From Gemmatimonadales bacterium (GTDB lineage Bacteria; Gemmatimonadota; Gemmatimonadetes; Gemmatimonadales; GWC2-71-9): DNA of 64,000 nucleotides. The position numbers and the translations under genes were made by a program. Numbering within the stretch: position 1 is the stretch's first letter; each line of letters begins with the position of its first letter. The stretch lies in contig JBGASX010000003.1 of NCBI GenBank assembly GCA_044229445.1, positions 20,836 to 84,835 of the forward strand. Direction: 5' to 3'. Shown piece after piece: positions 6,010-15,939 of the stretch. The notes beneath the pieces were generated by a model. That model did not search any database, was not told where the DNA came from, and saw only the letters and a program-made list of their open reading frames with translations.

Positions 6010-8136
<2,127 letters not shown>

Positions 8137-8156: not shown

Positions 8157-9023
8157 ATGAGACTCTACTCCCGGACCCGGGAGCCGGGCCGTTTGCGCAT
8201 GCTTGTCGCCCTCACGATACTGCCTGCCCTGACCACGCCGCTCGCCGCCCAGCAGGACCGCAACCACCTCTACGACCGGGTGCAGATCGGCGTCTCCGGC
8301 GCCGAAGCCTTCCTGAACACGACGATCCGGGTGGATGCCAGCGATGGCACGCCGGGAACGGACATCAACACCGAGGACCTCCTCGGACTCGGCAAGAGCC
8401 AGCTCCGGCCCCGCTTCACCCTGCGGCTCCGCCCCGGCCGGCGGCACGAATTCGAGTTCAACTACATGCAGGTCCGGCGGGAAGGCTTCGTCGGCGTCAA
8501 CGTGCCGATCCAGTTCGGTGACAGCGTGTTCAACGCCGGCGCCTACCTCTTCTCCTACCTGAAGACGGACCAGGTCGGCATGACCTACCGGCTGGCCCTC
8601 CGGGCGAAGGAGAAGAGCCAGGCGGGGCTTAGCGTGGGCGTCGGTGCCATCGTGCTCGAGGCCGGTATCGCGGCGCTCGCCGTGGCCGGCGACAGCGCCT
8701 CGATCCTCTTCCTCGAGGACCGCAAGTTCACCGGTCCGACCGCGTCGGTCGGTCTCTTCGGACGGACCGAGCTCGCGAGGAACCTCTATCTCGAGGGCGA
8801 TGCGCGCGGACTGTACGTGAAGGTGAGCCGGATCCGGGCGACCGTGCTGGAGGGCGGCGCGACGCTCCGCTACTTCGTCCTGCCGTGGCTGGGTGGAGAG
8901 GCTGGCTACGGCATCGGCTTCTACAACGTGAAGCTCGATCCCAAGATCGGCAGCAGTGCGCTGGCCGGACGGGTGAAGTACTCCGTGCAGACGCTGCGCG
9001 GCGGCGTGGTGCTCGGCTTCTGA
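8157..9023 (+). CDS. outer-membrane beta-barrel protein (hypothetical)
   Basis: 288 aa. Signal peptide ends ...LPALTTPLAAQQ. Alternating beta-strand pattern, with a C-terminal ...RGGVVLGF whose terminal Phe is typical of OMPs. Confidence 0.6.
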   Translation: MRLYSRTREPGRLRMLVALTILPALTTPLAAQQDRNHLYDRVQIGVSGAEAFLNTTIRVDASDGTPGTDINTEDLLGLGKSQLRPRFTLRLRPGRRHEFEFNYMQVRREGFVGVNVPIQFGDSVFNAGAYLFSYLKTDQVGMTYRLALRAKEKSQAGLSVGVGAIVLEAGIAALAVAGDSASILFLEDRKFTGPTASVGLFGRTELARNLYLEGDARGLYVKVSRIRATVLEGGATLRYFVLPWLGGEAGYGIGFYNVKLDPKIGSSALAGRVKYSVQTLRGGVVLGF

Positions 9024-9068: not shown

Positions 9069-9797
9069 TCACCCGGCGTTCGCGTGCGGAGCGGCCGGCG
9101 GAATTCCGTCAGCCGGATAACCCAGCTCCTCACCCAGCTTTCCGTAGGTCAGGCCGGTGACCAGGTCGTAAAGCGTGTGCACTGCCATCGCCACGTAGAG
9201 CGAGCCCGCCAGCAGCACCAGCCCCTGCAGTGCCAGACCGATGAGGCCGACGGCCAGGATGCCTTTCCATCCCTGCACCGCATGCGCCCCGGCGAAGAGC
9301 ATCGCCGCCGCCAGCGCCGCCATCATCGGATCTCCCGCCAGCCGGAGCAGCAGGACGTACATCACGCCGCGATAGGTGATCTCCTCGCCGCACCCCGCCG
9401 CCAGCGATACCCCCACCCAGAGCCGCCGCTCCGCCGCATCCCGGGGCATCACGAAGTGTACCCGCGGTTCCCGCCGTTCCACCGCCTCCCGCCACCTCGG
9501 CCGGAGCGCCAGGATCGTGAGCACGGCCATTGCTGCGCCGACGCCGATCGCGATGGCAGGGGGGAGCTGCGCCGGAAAGAGCGGGATCTGCTCGGCGCGC
9601 GCGACCTGGAGGGAGATGAGGACGCTGACGCCCTGGACCACGAGCACCGAAACGAAGTGCGCCTTGCGGGGGCGCTGGGTCATGCGGGGCAGGTTCCGGG
9701 CGCTCTGCATCGCGAGATAGGGCAGTGCGACGCCGAAACAGATCAGATGGAACCAGCCCCACGCCCCCACCGTGGCCGTGGCGGCCGGATCAGACAT
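9069..9797 (-). CDS. CPBP (CAAX/Abi-type) intramembrane glutamic protease family protein
   Basis: 242 aa, multi-TM. Motifs EEITYRG (EExxxR), FAGAHAV and MAVHTLYD. Its start overlaps the ABC ATPase stop by 8 nt. Confidence 0.75.
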   Translation of the reverse strand: MSDPAATATVGAWGWFHLICFGVALPYLAMQSARNLPRMTQRPRKAHFVSVLVVQGVSVLISLQVARAEQIPLFPAQLPPAIAIGVGAAMAVLTILALRPRWREAVERREPRVHFVMPRDAAERRLWVGVSLAAGCGEEITYRGVMYVLLLRLAGDPMMAALAAAMLFAGAHAVQGWKGILAVGLIGLALQGLVLLAGSLYVAMAVHTLYDLVTGLTYGKLGEELGYPADGIPPAAPHANAG

Positions 9798-10614
9798 AGG
9801 AGCGGCGGAGGAGCGCCGCGGTATCCTCGTCGAGCATGTCGCTCCGGCGCAGTTCCTCGAAGCGGTCGAGCAGGTCTTCCACGCGGAGCCGGCGCTTCTG
9901 GGAGCCGCGCAGGTCGTAGGCGATCCGTCCCCGGTGCATGATGAGGATCCGGTCGCCCACGCGGACCGCCTGCGCGAGGGAATGGGTCACCATGATCGTA
10001 GTGAGACGCTCCGCATTCACGAAGCTCTGTGTCAGGCGGAGCACCTGCTCCGCGCTGCGCGGGTCGAGGGCGGCGGTGTGCTCGTCCAGCATGAGCAGGC
10101 TGGGACGCACGATGAGCGCCATCAGCAGGGTCAGTGCCTGGCGCTGGCCACCCGAGAGCAGCCCCATCGGGGTTTGGAGCCGGTCTTCGAGGCCGAGGCC
10201 CAGGGTGCGGACCCGGTCGAACAGTTCGTCGCGCCGGCTGCGATTGAGTGCCCGGCGGAACCAGCGCGGGGCGCCGCGCTTCGCCGCGATCGCCAGGTTC
10301 TCCGCGACCGACATGTCGCCTGCGGTGCCGGCGAACGGGTCCTGGAACACCCGCGCAATGAGCCGCGCCCGGCGCGGCTCCGACCACCGGGTGATGTCGG
10401 TGCCGTCGATGTGGATCGTGCCCGCCTCGGGGCGGAGCGAACCGGCGATCGCGTTGAGCAGCGTCGACTTGCCGGAACCGTTGCTGCCGAGCACCACGAC
10501 GAAGGCCCCGGGCTCCAGCTCGAGATCGAGATTCACCAGCGCCACGTTCTCGCTGGGTGTCCCGCGATGGAAGGTGTGGGCCAGACCCTGGATCTGCAGC
10601 GCGGGCTCACGCAC
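9790..10614 (-). CDS. ABC transporter ATP-binding protein (uncharacterised importer type)
   Basis: 274 aa. Walker A GSNGSGKST, signature LSGGQRQ, Walker B LLMLDEHTAALD. Confidence 0.9.
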   Translation of the reverse strand: MREPALQIQGLAHTFHRGTPSENVALVNLDLELEPGAFVVVLGSNGSGKSTLLNAIAGSLRPEAGTIHIDGTDITRWSEPRRARLIARVFQDPFAGTAGDMSVAENLAIAAKRGAPRWFRRALNRSRRDELFDRVRTLGLGLEDRLQTPMGLLSGGQRQALTLLMALIVRPSLLMLDEHTAALDPRSAEQVLRLTQSFVNAERLTTIMVTHSLAQAVRVGDRILIMHRGRIAYDLRGSQKRRLRVEDLLDRFEELRRSDMLDEDTAALLRRSYV

Positions 10615-11527
10615 GGGGCACCCGGGCGGCTCTCTGGGTGCGGAGCGAACGGATCACCTGCGGCACCGTGAGTGCCGCCAGCACGAAGGCCGCGGTCACC
10701 AGCCGGAGGGCGTTCGGATCGAGGCCGGCGCGTACCGCCGCCGCGATCATGAGCCGGAACACCATGGCCCCGTAGATCGCGGCCATGATCCGCTTGCGGA
10801 TGGTGCGCTGACTGAAGAGGGCCTCCCCCAGGATCACACTGGCAAGGCCGGTCACGATCATGCCGACGCCCATCTGGATGTTCGCGAAGCCCTGGTACTG
10901 CACGAACAGCGCGCCGGAGAAGCCGATGCAGCCGTTCGCGATCGCGAGCCCGAAGGTCGTCGCCAGCCCGGTGTCGATCGCCGAGGCCTTCGCCATGCGG
11001 GGACTGCTGCCGGTGGCGCGCAGCGCGAGGCCGACGTCGGTGATGACGAACAGTCCGAGTGCCACAGCGTGCCCGCCCACGATCACGAGCAGCGCGACCA
11101 GCGCGACCAGATCGCGCGACAGCTCGACCCCCTCCATGTTCTCCCGGTCGGGGAGCAGGGAGGCGGTCATGTCGAAAACGGTGGGATGTCCCGCGAGCGA
11201 GAGGTTGCCGCTCCCCATGATCCACAGGTCGATCGAGTAGAGCGCCGTCGTCACGAGGATGCCCGCCAGGATGACGTCGATCCGCCAGCGGGTGTGGATC
11301 AGGCCGGTCACGGTGCCCGCCAGCGTCCCCGCCAGCCCGCCCGCGATCGTGGCGAAGAGGGGGTGCACGCCGGCCACGAGCAGCGCGCCGGTGACCGCGC
11401 CGCCGGTCGTGAACGCTCCGTCGGTCGTGAGGTCGAGGCTGCGGAGAATCCGGAACGAGAAGAGCACGCCGAGGCTCAGCAGCGCGAGCTGCAGGCCGAC
11501 GGTCAGGGCCCCGAGCAGCAGGTTCAC
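10607..11527 (-). CDS. ABC transporter permease (uncharacterised importer type)
   Basis: 306 aa and highly hydrophobic with many TM segments. GTG start overlaps the STAS-protein stop (GTGA). 8-nt overlap with the ATPase gene. Confidence 0.8.
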   Translation of the reverse strand: MNLLLGALTVGLQLALLSLGVLFSFRILRSLDLTTDGAFTTGGAVTGALLVAGVHPLFATIAGGLAGTLAGTVTGLIHTRWRIDVILAGILVTTALYSIDLWIMGSGNLSLAGHPTVFDMTASLLPDRENMEGVELSRDLVALVALLVIVGGHAVALGLFVITDVGLALRATGSSPRMAKASAIDTGLATTFGLAIANGCIGFSGALFVQYQGFANIQMGVGMIVTGLASVILGEALFSQRTIRKRIMAAIYGAMVFRLMIAAAVRAGLDPNALRLVTAAFVLAALTVPQVIRSLRTQRAARVPRA

Positions 11528-12780
11528 GCCAGCATCTCCGTGCTGTCGATCTTGGCCATCCAGCAGACCCCGCGCAGCAGGCCGGTCACGCCCGAGCCCG
11601 CAGACCCCCGGTCATCGTGCACCAGGTGCAGGACGTCGCGCAGGGGCGACTCTTCGAAGAGCCGCTCGAGCAGGGCGGAGAGCAGCACGGTGCGCTGGGG
11701 CACGGGGCTGTAGGGAAAGATTGCGGCGTGGAAGTGGCCGCTCAGCGTGCCGTTGGCGTCCATCGGCCGAAGATACGGCGCGAGGAGCGCATCCGGGCGC
11801 CGCGCGGCGACGCCGACGATGAGCGCCGTCGTGCCGTGATGCGCCTGCTCCGGCGTGAAGGAGATCTGCTCCCGGAGGTGGGCCGCGTCGGTCCGGCCGG
11901 CTTCACCGGGCGCAAGCAGTGCCGGCGACCGGCGCAGACTGGCGCCCACGACGCCCCGCATCTCCGCCACGGCAGCAAGCACGACGGCGTCCGCGCCGAG
12001 CATCTCGACGCCCACCTCCGCCAGCTCGGCCATGGGGATCTCGTCCGCATCCGGCTGGGTGGAGAAGCGGATGAGGTCCGAGAACATGCCCTTCCAGGTG
12101 ATGCCCTGCAGCAGCACCACCCTGGGCGGGTTCTTGGCGTAGGTCATCATGAAATCGGGAACCCGATTGCCCTCGGTGGGCAGGTACGCGGCGATTCCTT
12201 CCGCGGCAACCAGCTCGCCGAATCGGGGCGCACCATCCTCGTAGCGGTCCCCGAGGGCGCCAATGCCCAGACCAAAGGTCTGCTTGGGGATCGAGACGAC
12301 GCGATGAGTGGCGGGGTTGATCGGCTGGCCGAGCAGCGAGGCGGACTGGCCCACCAGGCCGCAGCGCACGCCCTCGTCGCTGTAGTGGGAGATCTCGTAG
12401 CTGCCGAACCGGGCATCGATCGCCGGAAGGCCCCAGCGACTGAATCGCCCGGAGGGGTTGGAGGCCCGGGGAAGCCCGGTCTGCGCGATGATCAGGGAGC
12501 CGAGACCGGCGGCCTCGAGGACCGCACGGGCCTGGGGAGAGGGACCTACCACGTGCAGCGTGCCGCGCAGCGCCGACAGGGCCTCGCTGAATCGCGCGAG
12601 GACCCGCACGCCGGCGGAACTGACGTAGGCAACGTCCGCCATCTCGAGTTCGATCGAGCGGGCACCCTCGCGGAGCGCATCCTCGAGGGTATCGGAAAGA
12701 TTGCGGGCCGCCTCCCCATCGAGGCGGCCCGCAAGGCGCACTACGGAAAACAGTCCGTCGTGCCCCGCGCTTACGCGCAT
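11524..12780 (-). CDS. STAS-domain protein with ~310-aa C-terminal domain of unknown family
   Basis: 418 aa. The first ~105 aa read as an SpoIIAA-like STAS fold (FSVVRLAGRLDGEAARNLSDTLEDALREGARSIELEMADVAYVSSAGVRVLARF...LHVVGPSPQARAVLEAAGL). I cannot place the rest. No TM segment or signal peptide. The start shares one base with the SBP stop (TAATG). Confidence 0.7.
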   Translation of the reverse strand: MRVSAGHDGLFSVVRLAGRLDGEAARNLSDTLEDALREGARSIELEMADVAYVSSAGVRVLARFSEALSALRGTLHVVGPSPQARAVLEAAGLGSLIIAQTGLPRASNPSGRFSRWGLPAIDARFGSYEISHYSDEGVRCGLVGQSASLLGQPINPATHRVVSIPKQTFGLGIGALGDRYEDGAPRFGELVAAEGIAAYLPTEGNRVPDFMMTYAKNPPRVVLLQGITWKGMFSDLIRFSTQPDADEIPMAELAEVGVEMLGADAVVLAAVAEMRGVVGASLRRSPALLAPGEAGRTDAAHLREQISFTPEQAHHGTTALIVGVAARRPDALLAPYLRPMDANGTLSGHFHAAIFPYSPVPQRTVLLSALLERLFEESPLRDVLHLVHDDRGSAGSGVTGLLRGVCWMAKIDSTEMLA

Positions 12781-13814
12781 TACTTCTTGGTGCTGTCGCC
12801 AACCACCTGGTTGGCCTCGGAGGACACGGCGCTCGGCACAGCGACGCCGGTGTTGGGGTTCACCGAGATCTTCGTGGTGACGACACGGAAGAACGGAATG
12901 GACGCCGGCGACTCACCCTTCAGGATGCGGCCGACCATCTTGCCCGCCTCGGCGCCACCCTCCTGGAAGTCGGGATAGATCGCGGCGATCGCACCCTTCA
13001 TCACCTCGAACGGCGACGAGGAGAACACCGGGATCTTCTTCTCCTTGGCGACCTTGAGTACGCTCTCGAACGCGGTGTGCGCCACGTTGCCGTAGATCTC
13101 GATCGCGTCGACCTTCTGGCCCAGCAGCGCCTGCGTCGCCTGCTCGGCATCGGCCACGGCACTCACGCCCTGCGCAACGGTCTTGAGCCCCGCCCGCTTG
13201 GCCGACTCCGTCATCTTGTCCTTCAGCGTCACCGACAGCGCCTCCTCGGGGCTGAACAGGATGCCGATGGTCCTGGCCTTCGGCAGGGTGCGCTTGATGA
13301 GGTCGACGCGCCGCTCCTGCTCCGGGTCGCCGAAGCCGGGGGCGTAGACGCCGGTGAAGTTGGCCAGGTGGTTCGAATCGGTGGTGCCGGCGCCGGCCGC
13401 GAACGGATCGGACAGCAGGTGGAAGACCACCGGGATGTCCTTGACCCGCTGCACTGCGGCCTGCAGCGTGGGATCCTGCAGCGCGATGATGACGGCGACC
13501 TTCTGGTCGCGGGCCTGGTCGATCAGCGTGGGCAGCGTGGCGAGATCGCCCTGCGCGGAGGTGATCCGGAGTTCGTAGTCCGTCCCCTCCTCCATGCCCA
13601 TCTCGGAGAGCCCGAACTTGATCGCGTCCTCACTCCACTCGTGACCCATCCAGTCGGCGGCGCGGATCATGGCGACGACCGGCTTCGCCTTGGCGGCGGC
13701 CGGTTCGGCGGCGGGCTTCTTCTCCCCACACCCGGCGATCGCGGCGACCAGCGCCACGGAACCGAGCGCACGCGCCCAGGAGCTTGCGAGGGGGGTCCAA
13801 CGGTGGCCGGTCAT
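12780..13814 (-). CDS. ABC transporter substrate-binding lipoprotein (uncharacterised ABC_sub_bind type)
   Basis: ORF 12780..14405 trimmed to ATG 13814, which has GGAGG 9 nt upstream (alternative ATG 13823). MTGHRWTPLASSWARALGSVALVAAIAGC|GEKK lipobox, then a periplasmic-binding-protein pattern. The upstream part of the ORF overlaps the kinase 3' end and is non-coding in character. Confidence 0.75.
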   Translation of the reverse strand: MTGHRWTPLASSWARALGSVALVAAIAGCGEKKPAAEPAAAKAKPVVAMIRAADWMGHEWSEDAIKFGLSEMGMEEGTDYELRITSAQGDLATLPTLIDQARDQKVAVIIALQDPTLQAAVQRVKDIPVVFHLLSDPFAAGAGTTDSNHLANFTGVYAPGFGDPEQERRVDLIKRTLPKARTIGILFSPEEALSVTLKDKMTESAKRAGLKTVAQGVSAVADAEQATQALLGQKVDAIEIYGNVAHTAFESVLKVAKEKKIPVFSSSPFEVMKGAIAAIYPDFQEGGAEAGKMVGRILKGESPASIPFFRVVTTKISVNPNTGVAVPSAVSSEANQVVGDSTKK

Positions 13815-13923
13815 GCTGTCCATCCTCCACACTGAGGGTTCCCGAGTCCGGAAGTCCGCCTGATCCCGGAACCGGGGGGACCGGCAGCACCGCACATGCC
13901 TGAGACGGGGGGCAATATACGAA

Positions 13924-13955
13924 CGCCCGCCCCGGGCGGAAGACCAGGGCGGGCG
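13924..13955 (-). terminator. intrinsic terminator candidate after the Ser/Thr kinase gene
   Basis: On the minus-strand RNA, CGCCCGCCC ... GGGCGGGCG forms a 9-bp stem with a 14-nt loop. It is followed by UUCGUAUAUUG. Confidence 0.5.
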
Positions 13956-13980
13956 GCAGGCAGGGCGGAAGGTGGGGCCG

Positions 13981-15939
13981 CTAGTCGGGCTTCCCGAGCG
14001 CCTCGCGGATTTCCCCCGCTGCCAGGATCGCGTTGTCGACGTCGCGGGAGAGCGCCCGGGCCTGCTGGGTGGCCATGGTGAGATCACCGAGCGCCGCCGC
14101 CGCGTCCGCGGAACGGAGCCGGAGGAGGTCGAACCGGACGTTCTGCATCGCCAGGATGCAGCTCTCGAGCTGGCTGGCGATCTGATCCCGGCGCCCGCGC
14201 AGATCGCCGATGGTCTTCTTCTGACGCTCGAGCAGCGCCATCCGCCGTGCCCGCTCCTCGTCGTCCGGCTCCCGGGCCAGGGCCTGGATCCGCTGGTCGA
14301 TCTTGTCGACACCCTGCAGATCCATGTTCGTGTCCATCGAATGCAGCGTCCGGGCATACTCGGCGGCGCGCTGGTACAACCCGTCCACCGTCCCCTGCAC
14401 ATCATCGGGGAGCATCTGCCGCTCCGCGGCGGACATGCGGTCGAGCAGCTTGAGGATCGCCAGCCGGTCGGAGTGCGCCTGGGTCATCAGGGCGGTCTGC
14501 TGCCCGTACTCATCGAGCTTGGGCGCCGGCAGCTGCCGCGCGACCTTGCCGCCCTTCCCCATGGGGGCGGCGATGGCATCGGGCGCGGGGGGACGGCTGA
14601 GCACGTCGCGCCAGGTATACCCGGCCTGCCACAACTTGGCGTAGTTGTTGACCAGCCCGAAGCCCATCGCGGCCATCGGGAAGAGGAACCACGGCGAGCC
14701 GATGCCGGTCGCGAGGTTGATCATGAACAGGCCACCCGAGACCGCCGCCCACTTCGCGAATTGGGCCCGGGTCTTCTGGACGATCAGCGGCTCGCCGGTA
14801 TCCGGCACCGGCAGCGGTGTGTCGTCCATCTTGCCGCCGATGCGCCGTCCGGCCCGATCCATCCGGCTGCTGGCCCGGTCCATGTGCCGGTCGAGCCGAT
14901 CGCGCCAGTCCTCGCCGCTCGACGGGCGCCGGGAAGGGGGCAGCGGGGACCGGGGCGGGAGCGGCGAGCGCGGAGAGGGGCCACCCGCGGCGCTGCCGTC
15001 GCCCGTGAGCCGGCGGGGCGCGTCCCCCGAGGGGCGGATCGCCGTGCCACGCTTCGTCTGGCCGGTGGGGCGGTAGCCGCTCACGGTCCGGCTCTCGAGC
15101 GCGCGGCGGAGCGCGTCGGCGGAGGGCCACCGGTTCTCGGGGTCCTTCTCGAGACAGCGCATCACGGCGAGGGCCAGATCCTCGGGGCAGTCGGGGCGCT
15201 TGAGCTCGACCGCTGGCGGCATCTCGGTGATCTGCTTCATCAGGATGCCGGCCACCGTCGGCGCGGTGAAGGGCAGCTCCCCCGTGAGCATCTGATAGGT
15301 CACGATGCCGAGACTGTAGAGATCGCTGCGTCCGTCGATCTCCTTCTCGCCCGCCGCCTGCTCGGGGCTCATGTACTGTGGCGTCCCGATTGCCACGCCA
15401 GCGCTGGTGAGCGTGCCGCCGGTACCGCCCGACATCGCCTTCGCGATGCCGAAGTCGGTGACCATCACCCGGCCGCGGGTGCCGTCGAGCAGGATGTTGT
15501 CAGGCTTGATGTCGCGATGAATCACCGAGAAGGCATGGGCGGCGCTCAGCGCATCCGCCGTCTCCTTCATGATCCGTCGCGCCTCCTCCACCGGGAGCTT
15601 GCCGCGCCGCTTGAGCCGCCCGCCGACCGACTCCCCATCGACGTAGCCCATCACGAAATAGACGAGCCCGTTACCCTCTCCGACTGTGAAGATCGGGACG
15701 ATGTTCGGATGGGAGAGGCGCGCCGCCGTCTCCGCCTCACGAGTGAAGCGGGCACGGATCTCGGCCTGGAAGGCCAGCTCGGGCGGGAGGACCTTGATCG
15801 CGACACGCCGCTTCAGTCGTTCATCGCGTGCGCGATAGACGACTCCCATACCCCCGCGACCGATCTCCCCTTCGATCGTGAAGGCATTTCCAAGAGCTTC
15901 GCTGAGGCGTGGCGCGAGGGACGAGTTCGATTCCGTCAT
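13981..15939 (-). CDS. Ser/Thr protein kinase with 2-TM segment and coiled-coil C-terminal domain
   Basis: 652 aa. GEIGRGGMGVVYRA, AIKVL, HRDIKPDN, DFG and SPE. These are followed by a Pro/Arg/Ser-rich linker, two TM helices (WAAVSGGLFMINLATGIGSPWFLFPMAAMGFGLV) and a ~200-aa helical tail. Confidence 0.9.
   Translation of the reverse strand: MTESNSSLAPRLSEALGNAFTIEGEIGRGGMGVVYRARDERLKRRVAIKVLPPELAFQAEIRARFTREAETAARLSHPNIVPIFTVGEGNGLVYFVMGYVDGESVGGRLKRRGKLPVEEARRIMKETADALSAAHAFSVIHRDIKPDNILLDGTRGRVMVTDFGIAKAMSGGTGGTLTSAGVAIGTPQYMSPEQAAGEKEIDGRSDLYSLGIVTYQMLTGELPFTAPTVAGILMKQITEMPPAVELKRPDCPEDLALAVMRCLEKDPENRWPSADALRRALESRTVSGYRPTGQTKRGTAIRPSGDAPRRLTGDGSAAGGPSPRSPLPPRSPLPPSRRPSSGEDWRDRLDRHMDRASSRMDRAGRRIGGKMDDTPLPVPDTGEPLIVQKTRAQFAKWAAVSGGLFMINLATGIGSPWFLFPMAAMGFGLVNNYAKLWQAGYTWRDVLSRPPAPDAIAAPMGKGGKVARQLPAPKLDEYGQQTALMTQAHSDRLAILKLLDRMSAAERQMLPDDVQGTVDGLYQRAAEYARTLHSMDTNMDLQGVDKIDQRIQALAREPDDEERARRMALLERQKKTIGDLRGRRDQIASQLESCILAMQNVRFDLLRLRSADAAAALGDLTMATQQARALSRDVDNAILAAGEIREALGKPD

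Follow-up and report, generated by a model that had tools for sequence, protein, structure and literature searches.

A STAS protein with an ALDC/PTD012-like C-terminal domain is a conserved member of TrpXYZ-like ABC importer operons and probably a phospho-switchable accessory protein

Few bacterial ATP-binding cassette (ABC) importers are known to be controlled post-translationally (MetN, ModC, MalK–EIIAGlc and MlaB), and little is understood about STAS proteins that are part of neither sigma-factor circuits nor SulP transporters. In E. coli, the STAS protein MlaB is a component of the MlaFEDB transporter, in which it binds and stabilises the ATPase MlaF; MlaB Thr52, the equivalent of the SpoIIAA phosphorylation site, is located centrally in the MlaF-binding interface, and the T52E substitution weakens this binding (PMC7367683). 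This article concerns an operon in a 64,000-nucleotide (nt) stretch of a Gemmatimonadales genome (contig JBGASX010000003.1; G+C about 68%; termed the window), in which the gene for a 418-amino-acid (aa) protein is inserted between the substrate-binding protein (SBP) and permease genes of an ABC importer. This protein, termed STAS-X, consists of an N-terminal STAS domain and a large C-terminal domain, termed X. An earlier note on the same DNA knew of no description of a free-standing STAS protein encoded between the SBP and permease genes of an ABC importer and followed by a CPBP protease; for a free-standing STAS protein in an ABC operon as such, MlaB provides a precedent. What is new here is probably an ABC importer with a novel, phospho-switchable accessory protein, for which MlaB would be, by analogy, the nearest functional precedent.

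KEGG names importers of the TrpXYZ type 'putative tryptophan/tyrosine transport system', and TrpXYZ is, to our knowledge, a three-gene system without a STAS gene. The transporter genes of the window resemble those of TrpXYZ from Streptococcus suis in encoding the same PF04392-type SBP, a PF02653-type permease and a single ABC ATPase (PMC9382623). The nearest solved structures to the window SBP are 6hni, 3lkv and 3lft. Against the TrpX equivalog model NF041285 the window SBP scores only 136 bits, whereas the cutoff is 390, and tryptophan specificity thus cannot be assigned to it.

The likeness of STAS-X to MlaB is that both are cytoplasmic STAS proteins whose genes lie inside an ABC transporter operon; in addition, the MlaB chains 6zy2_B, 7ch7_E and 6xbd_K match the STAS domain of STAS-X in Foldseek searches (E values of about 1e-3). 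The two differ in that MlaB is a single truncated STAS domain of about 95 aa lacking the last strand and helix (PMC7367683), whereas STAS-X carries an additional 300-aa domain, and in that MlaB serves an MCE lipid transporter, which lacks an SBP of the PF04392 type and whose permease, MlaE, is unrelated. SpoIIAA and RsbV share with STAS-X the STAS fold and a conserved phospho-acceptor position, and genes for HATPase_c_2 kinases, response-regulator (RR)-SpoIIE proteins and PP2C phosphatases stand beside several STAS-X operons; unlike SpoIIAA and RsbV, STAS-X has the 300-aa domain, its constant partner is an ABC transporter, and its neighbours in Gemmatimonadota are Hanks-type rather than RsbW-type kinases. 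In concept only, STAS-X may also be likened to the MetN C2 domain, ModC and EIIAGlc/MalK, in which a cytoplasmic ligand-binding module on the ATPase shuts import at a high cytoplasmic pool. Trans-inhibition domains and EIIAGlc/MalK have been cited as regulatory precedents (PMC7367683), but there the module either extends the C-terminus of the ATPase or is a phosphotransferase-system protein, whereas STAS-X is a separate protein of another fold with a putative phospho-switch domain.

The open reading frame (ORF) listing and matches in Pfam and NCBIfam identify five consecutive genes on the minus strand of the window. Positions are those of the window, AF2 stands for AlphaFold2, pLDDT and pTM are its confidence scores, and ALDC stands for acetolactate decarboxylase:

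12780–13823, minus strand: SBP lipoprotein, TrpX-like; PF04392 (ABC_sub_bind), 4.5e-46; lipobox IAGC
11524–12780, minus strand: STAS-X protein, 418 aa; PF01740 on residues 8–97 only, 4.2e-14
12478–12780, minus strand: STAS domain of STAS-X, residues 1–101, SpoIIAA/RsbV-like
12436–12477, minus strand: linker of STAS-X, residues 102–115; AF2 pLDDT below 50, variable in length and gap-rich in the family alignment
11524–12435, minus strand: C-terminal domain X of STAS-X, residues 116–418; predicted two-lobed ALDC/PTD012-like fold (AF2, Foldseek)
10607–11527, minus strand: permease; PF02653 (BPD_transp_2), 7.7e-20; GTG start
9790–10614, minus strand: ABC ATPase; PF00005, 5e-29
9069–9797, minus strand: CPBP/Rce1-like intramembrane protease; PF02517, 6.8e-15

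As read in the sequence, the junctions are TAATG between SBP and STAS-X, GTGA between STAS-X and permease, and 8-nt overlaps both between permease and ATPase and between ATPase and CPBP. The order, domains and overlaps of the five genes described in the earlier note thus all hold.

The gene order was surveyed by tblastn. The contexts were 13 exact look-ups (eight in Gemmatimonadota and five distant), 78 loci from GTDB genomes and 80 loci from metagenomes; surveyed loci carry L numbers below. The scan of GTDB genomes used a peptide pattern specific to Gemmatimonadota and is not informative on presence in other GTDB genomes. The resulting neighbourhood table contains 84 loci outside Gemmatimonadota and 78 Gemmatimonadota loci, and each denominator counts only those loci whose contig extends far enough for a verdict:

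SBP gene directly upstream of STAS-X: 70/72 outside Gemmatimonadota, 53/72 in Gemmatimonadota
Permease gene directly downstream of STAS-X: 76/76 outside Gemmatimonadota, 60/71 in Gemmatimonadota
ATPase gene after the permease gene: 61/61 outside Gemmatimonadota, 61/70 in Gemmatimonadota
CPBP gene after the ATPase gene: 0/50 outside Gemmatimonadota, 6/64 in Gemmatimonadota

About 160 independent loci have STAS-X in this place, flanked by the SBP gene on one side and the permease gene on the other, mostly with start and stop codons that overlap or abut those of the neighbouring genes, and the core of four genes is present in all eight Gemmatimonadota and all five distant contexts that were looked up. 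The conserved unit is SBP (PF04392)–STAS-X–permease (PF02653)–ATPase, spanning Gemmatimonadota, Verrucomicrobiota, Lentisphaerota and Omnitrophota. This establishes the STAS protein with its additional domain as a genuine member of an ABC importer operon. Of the co-occurrence of STAS-X, ABC genes and CPBP about which the earlier note had asked, the part concerning STAS-X and the ABC genes stands, and the part concerning CPBP does not. The note had also reckoned with a chance juxtaposition in case the C-terminal domain belonged to a well-known enzyme family and the arrangement was not conserved; the four-gene arrangement is kept across phyla.

Exceptions to this order in Gemmatimonadota are paralogues, some of which have no upstream SBP match. 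In the loci L054, L055, L084, L075, L083, L045 and L040, STAS-X is encoded between a long and a short (about 280 aa) Hanks-type kinase without transporter genes, as exemplified by PK751-STASX-PK280 at L054:5723-10094. Single Gemmatimonadales genomes can contain two or three STAS-X paralogues with differing types of neighbourhood, examples among metagenome-assembled genomes (MAGs) being MFD00392.bin.2.68 (L037, L059 and L076) and SMAG_U3977 (L020 and L032). Doubling of the PF04392 SBP is frequent in loci outside Gemmatimonadota, either as fused double SBPs of 704–1107 aa or as tandem SBP genes; doubled SBPs are found at L090:5868-7982, L091:5179-8004, L092:5128-8004, L111:3142-6111 and L151:20-3343, and two tandem SBP genes on the P0279 contig and at L100. 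Among the soil-clade loci, the flanking genes are variable, with no recurrent neighbour hinting at the substrate.

STAS-X belongs to a large family. At least 176 homologues were found by a word-indexed search; the full-length proteins listed are about 402–436 aa long with 41–98% identity, alongside a few shorter fragments, and they are annotated merely as 'STAS domain-containing protein' or 'anti-anti-sigma factor'. When the last 312 residues alone were compared with 1.84 billion representatives in an exhaustive phmmer search, they returned 708 clusters at E≤1e-3, including 286 at E≤1e-30. Among the 150 matches to domain X that were listed, nearly all proteins are 400–440 aa long and match at residues of about 130–410, which means that domain X almost always follows an N-terminus of about 100–130 aa. 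All 55 sampled members carry a STAS domain and no other Pfam domain. Named carriers include Gemmatimonadales MAGs, the cultured Opitutaceae bacterium strains TAV1 and TAV5 (Verrucomicrobiota), a Lentisphaerae MAG and Omnitrophota MAGs.

STAS-X has no transmembrane (TM) segment or signal peptide. Its STAS fold had been assigned to the N-terminal region of about 105 aa, in agreement with the extent of the PF01740 match, and this domain passes the curated cutoffs of both PF01740 (52.6 versus 22.6 bits) and PF13466 (48.8 versus 29.2 bits). In the AF2 model, the order of its secondary structures, β-β-α-β-α-β-α, is that of the STAS fold; Foldseek comparison with SpoIIAA and RsbV gives TMt scores of 0.75–0.87 with root-mean-square deviations of 1.4–3 Å, and a sequence search of the PDB yields SpoIIAA matches at 1e-5. 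Ser55 of STAS-X aligns with the phosphorylated Ser of SpoIIAA (1h4y and 1th8). In an alignment of 55 family members with 28–60% identity, Ser54 is present in 55/55 sequences and Ser or Thr at position 55 likewise in 55/55, making these two invariant positions candidate phospho-acceptors.

Beyond the STAS domain, STAS-X has no match in Pfam, NCBIfam, PADLOC or a PDB profile search, and the C-terminal region of about 310 aa had previously been left unassigned. Structure prediction now suggests a fold for it. The AF2 model of full-length STAS-X has a pLDDT of 88, and that of domain X alone a pLDDT of 93.9 and a pTM of 0.92. In Foldseek searches of the PDB with domain X, only proteins of the ALDC and PTD012 types are significant. 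The ALDC matches (5yho_A, E 3e-7; 6j92_B, TMt 0.68; also 4bt2, 5xne, 1xv2 and 6j3d) range in E from 3e-7 to 1e-4 over 289–300 columns with TMt of 0.54–0.68; human PTD012/C11orf54 (1xcr_A, described as a 'novel zinc-containing fold') matches with E 2.8e-6 over 335 columns, and PPC/AF0104 proteins match half of the domain. On the basis of these models, X is assigned at the fold level to the zinc-binding ALDC/PTD012 type, a group which we take to be the AF0104/ALDC/Ptd012-like superfamily of SCOP. Domain X shares with these proteins the two-lobed β-rich fold, and its conserved histidines, a His-x-His pair within one β-strand and one more His, may correspond to the three-His zinc site of ALDC/PTD012 proteins; it differs from ALDC in being about 70 residues longer and fused to a STAS domain.

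In the same alignment, H349, H351, H385, D209, G404 and W407 of domain X are invariant, and E189 (54/55), E273, D389 and R391 are conserved at 98%. H349-x-H351 together with H385 resembles a three-His zinc site, yet the spacing to the third His is +34 compared with +11 in the ALDC sequences compared. Arg238, the candidate equivalent of the catalytic Arg of ALDC, is conserved in 44/55 sequences. This polar cluster probably represents a metal/ligand pocket. Membership of PF03306, the ALDC family itself, was considered for domain X and rejected, as 0/55 members match at E≤10, and the PDB profile search returned no ALDC at E≤10. Alignment by hhalign of the STAS-X family profile with one ALDC sequence and with a four-sequence ALDC alignment was likewise not significant, the global mode giving nothing; in local mode, three weak colinear motif matches are seen, each insignificant (E 0.035–0.084, probability <2%), on motifs which we take to carry the catalytic Glu65, the catalytic Arg145 and a zinc histidine of ALDC. 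In the literature, we found no paper that joins STAS with acetolactate decarboxylase, and none that joins STAS, partner-switching, ABC transporter and SBP.

Genes for protein kinases and phosphatases accompany the operon in several lineages. In the window, a single kinase gene is found directly upstream of the SBP gene:

13981–15939, minus strand: Hanks-type Ser/Thr protein kinase; PF00069, 2e-51; PF13239

This is the sole kinase match in the window, and the protein includes a two-TM segment (PF13239) as well as an extended coiled stretch at its C-terminus. Its orthologue (81–100% identity in the kinase domain) also precedes the SBP gene in relatives whose STAS-X has no more than 43–46% identity. 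Matches of this kinase to the PADLOC model PD-T4-6 (up to 2e-96) reflect generic similarity among Hanks kinases and were dismissed as a sign of a defence system. In Gemmatimonadota, a Hanks kinase gene is found within 2.6 kb upstream in 42/64 loci, and one starting at most 350 nt downstream on the same strand in 34/63 loci, against a background of 13 kinase hits in 386 kb of distal flanks. The short downstream kinases form one orthologous group (57–66% identity) and follow STAS-X with or without intervening transporter genes. In another Gemmatimonadota clade, a long TPR kinase is encoded upstream and a kinase of about 286 aa immediately downstream of the operon; in a third, DUF983 and PP2C genes lie downstream (L001, L004, L031 and L085). 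Hanks kinases or PP2C flank the operon in Gemmatimonadota far above chance. The small DUF983 gene that goes with the PP2C-type clade either separates the ATPase gene from the PP2C gene or precedes the SBP gene (L001:10069-10521; L004:5290-5763; also L031 and L085).

Outside Gemmatimonadota, Hanks kinases are not adjacent to the STAS-X operons surveyed. Among the surveyed loci, neighbouring RsbW or SpoIIE genes are confined to L091, L092, L100, L108 and L144: an RR-SpoIIE gene lies upstream in L092, and complete sets of RR-SpoIIE, RsbW and small STAS genes stand beside L100, L108 and L144. L091, from Lentisphaerae GWF2_44_16 (MHBF01000121.1), contains a canonical ALDC gene (PF03306, 7.6e-82) and a gene for an RsbW-like HATPase_c_2 kinase, and in the tight operon at L091:3999-11000 these two genes directly precede the doubled SBP, STAS-X, permease and ATPase genes. 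In the window itself, genes for an RsbW-like kinase and for a PP2C are both absent, the sole kinase neighbour being of the Hanks type, and no sigma factor gene is conserved near the STAS-X operons surveyed. The system accordingly does not qualify as classical partner switching of the RsbU/V/W type, in which a HATPase_c_2 kinase and a PP2C phosphatase act on a sigma-factor output. Phosphorylation of a STAS protein by a Hanks kinase has a precedent in PknD and Rv0516c (PMC1847690), and the kinase encoded at 13981–15939 may phosphorylate STAS-X. The gated or signalling ABC system proposed in the earlier note gains support from the invariant Ser54 and Ser/Thr55, the enrichment of kinase and phosphatase genes, and the RsbW/SpoIIE sets beside distant operons.

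The explanation that we consider best, with about an even chance of being correct, is that a TrpXYZ-like ABC importer has in STAS-X a fourth component of its own, which is cytoplasmic, phospho-switchable and metal- or ligand-binding and acts in an MlaB-like manner. The STAS domain would dock on a partner, most likely the ATPase dimer, as MlaB does on MlaF, and docking would be switched by phosphorylation of Ser54/Ser55. In Gemmatimonadota, the Hanks kinases encoded beside the operon are candidates for this phosphorylation, as are RsbW-type kinases in certain other lineages, and phosphatases of the PP2C or SpoIIE type would reverse it. Domain X might bind a small ligand of the carboxylate type together with a divalent metal; the ligand could plausibly be what is imported or a metabolite of it, so that transport would be tuned to the cytoplasmic pool. 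This would amount to trans-inhibition by a separate protein acting in trans. The switch might in addition inform the kinases of the status of the transporter. More tentatively, and with a probability well short of even, STAS-X might represent a widespread, undescribed class of partner switching in which the output is an ABC importer instead of a sigma factor, domain X serves as a metal-dependent sensor of the ALDC fold for a cytoplasmic metabolite, and a STAS domain toggled by Hanks or RsbW-type kinases and PP2C both gates the ATPase and informs the kinases.

Several observations weigh against STAS-X as a phospho-switchable importer component. In the soil clade (L094–L173), most loci have no adjacent kinase or phosphatase gene, suggesting that phospho-control may be lineage-specific or encoded elsewhere. 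The paralogous loci in which STAS-X is accompanied by two kinases but by no transporter genes (L054, L055, L084 and others) indicate that STAS-X can function where no transporter is encoded beside it. In domain X, the strict conservation of the polar cluster would fit catalysis as well as ligand sensing. Furthermore, the STAS domain scores far below the cutoff of the MlaB model NF033618 mlaB_1 (14.2 versus 90 bits), so that the MlaB analogy is functional only.

In one alternative, STAS-X would form an enzyme–transporter metabolon: domain X would be an active metalloenzyme, either an ALDC-like decarboxylase or a PTD012-like hydrolase, converting the imported compound on entry, and the STAS domain would merely tether it. 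The fold of X matches only enzymes or zinc proteins of the ALDC/PTD012 superfamily, the invariant H349, H351, H385 and D209 and the near-invariant E189, E273, D389 and R391 look like an active site, the three local hhalign matches are colinear and fall on the ALDC motifs named above, and a canonical ALDC gene shares the operon in the Lentisphaerae genome. These points are countered by the lack of PF03306 membership at the sequence level (0/55), by the insignificance of the hhalign matches and by the incomplete conservation of Arg238; moreover, a pure tether needs neither a strictly conserved phospho-acceptor nor a strong linkage to kinases and phosphatases, and paralogues without transporter genes keep their kinases. 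Such an enzyme–transporter unit is considered unlikely. Equally improbable in our judgement is a sensory role of the importer, in which the transporter would act as a sensor and STAS-X would relay substrate availability to Ser/Thr kinases or a partner-switching system, with signalling or gene expression instead of transport control as the main output, in a manner resembling PhoU with PstSCAB/PhoR or BceAB/BceS. Genes for kinases, PP2C, RR-SpoIIE, RsbW, PAS histidine kinases and GGDEF proteins recur beside the operon across lineages, STAS-X lies between two kinases in transporter-less loci, and SBPs are doubled in several distant loci, all of which would suit a sensory role; but the operons have no conserved neighbour encoding a sigma or anti-sigma output, signalling genes are missing beside most soil-clade loci, and sequence alone does not tell in which direction information would flow.

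Far less probable than either, indeed barely credible, is that the five genes of the window form a system coupling import to CPBP proteolysis, or else a chance juxtaposition of unrelated genes. The PF02517 score of the CPBP protein is 55.6 bits against a cutoff of 22.4, and the translation contains the EExxxR, FxxxH and HxxxD motifs intact as EEITYR, FAGAH and HTLYD. Its gene overlaps the ATPase gene by 8 nt and is kept at the same position down to 56–58% STAS-X identity (L018 and L021–L024), and a weak match (32 bits) to NF041647, an NCBIfam family of fused ABC-permease/CPBP proteins, also speaks for a connection. However, a CPBP gene follows the ATPase gene only in the window, its near-twin L012, L008, L018 and L021–L024, and is missing from relatives with 83% (L010), 77% (L007) and 62% (L006) identity and from all loci outside Gemmatimonadota. 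This distribution leads to a conserved unit of four genes, in which CPBP is a facultative, lineage-restricted appendix of the operon outside the core mechanism. Because CPBP so rarely co-occurs with the STAS-X operon, the coupling of transport to proteolysis that the earlier note had envisaged is unlikely as a core function, and a chance juxtaposition of STAS-X and the transporter is excluded by the loci with the same order, about 160 in number.

If STAS-X does represent a class of partner switching with an importer as its output, the uptake of nutrients would be under immediate influence of Ser/Thr signalling in Gemmatimonadota, Verrucomicrobiota, Lentisphaerota and Omnitrophota as well as in many soil bacteria. 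As STAS-X is integral to a whole subfamily of TrpXYZ-like importers, it offers a testable model of phospho- and metabolite-gated import, would give a function to abundant proteins now labelled 'anti-anti-sigma factor', and would represent a new use, non-catalytic or neo-catalytic, of the ALDC/PTD012 zinc fold. The cultured Opitutaceae strains TAV1 and TAV5 make experiments feasible.

Upstream of the operon in the window, one further feature separates it from the kinase gene:

13824–13980, minus strand: intergenic region between the kinase gene and the operon, with a hairpin, TATATT and GGAGG; conserved in relatives

In the direction of transcription, a GC hairpin, GCCCGCCC ... GGGCGGGC (about 13954–13925), is followed by TATATT at 13919–13914 and GGAGG at 13828–13824; the hairpin and TATATT are conserved down to the 77% relative among six relatives aligned. 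The region thus laid out probably holds the terminator of the kinase gene as well as the operon's own promoter and ribosome-binding site. A consensus promoter/terminator scan of this region gave no signal, and an Rfam search of the operon leader returned no family and no T-box. The SBP gene had been taken to start with the ATG at 13823, which abuts the GGAGG and is missing from the 62% relative; the ATG at 13814, located 9 nt after the GGAGG and kept in 6/6 relatives in the alignment of the upstream region, is more likely and is probably the conserved start.

At the other end of the operon, a convergent gene for a fused E1 dehydrogenase (6010–8136) faces the ATPase gene, and the space separating these two genes, which is empty in the 83% relative L010, is occupied in the window by the CPBP gene and by a 288-aa ORF without a Pfam match (8157–9023, plus strand), the latter being common only to the 96% relative L012.

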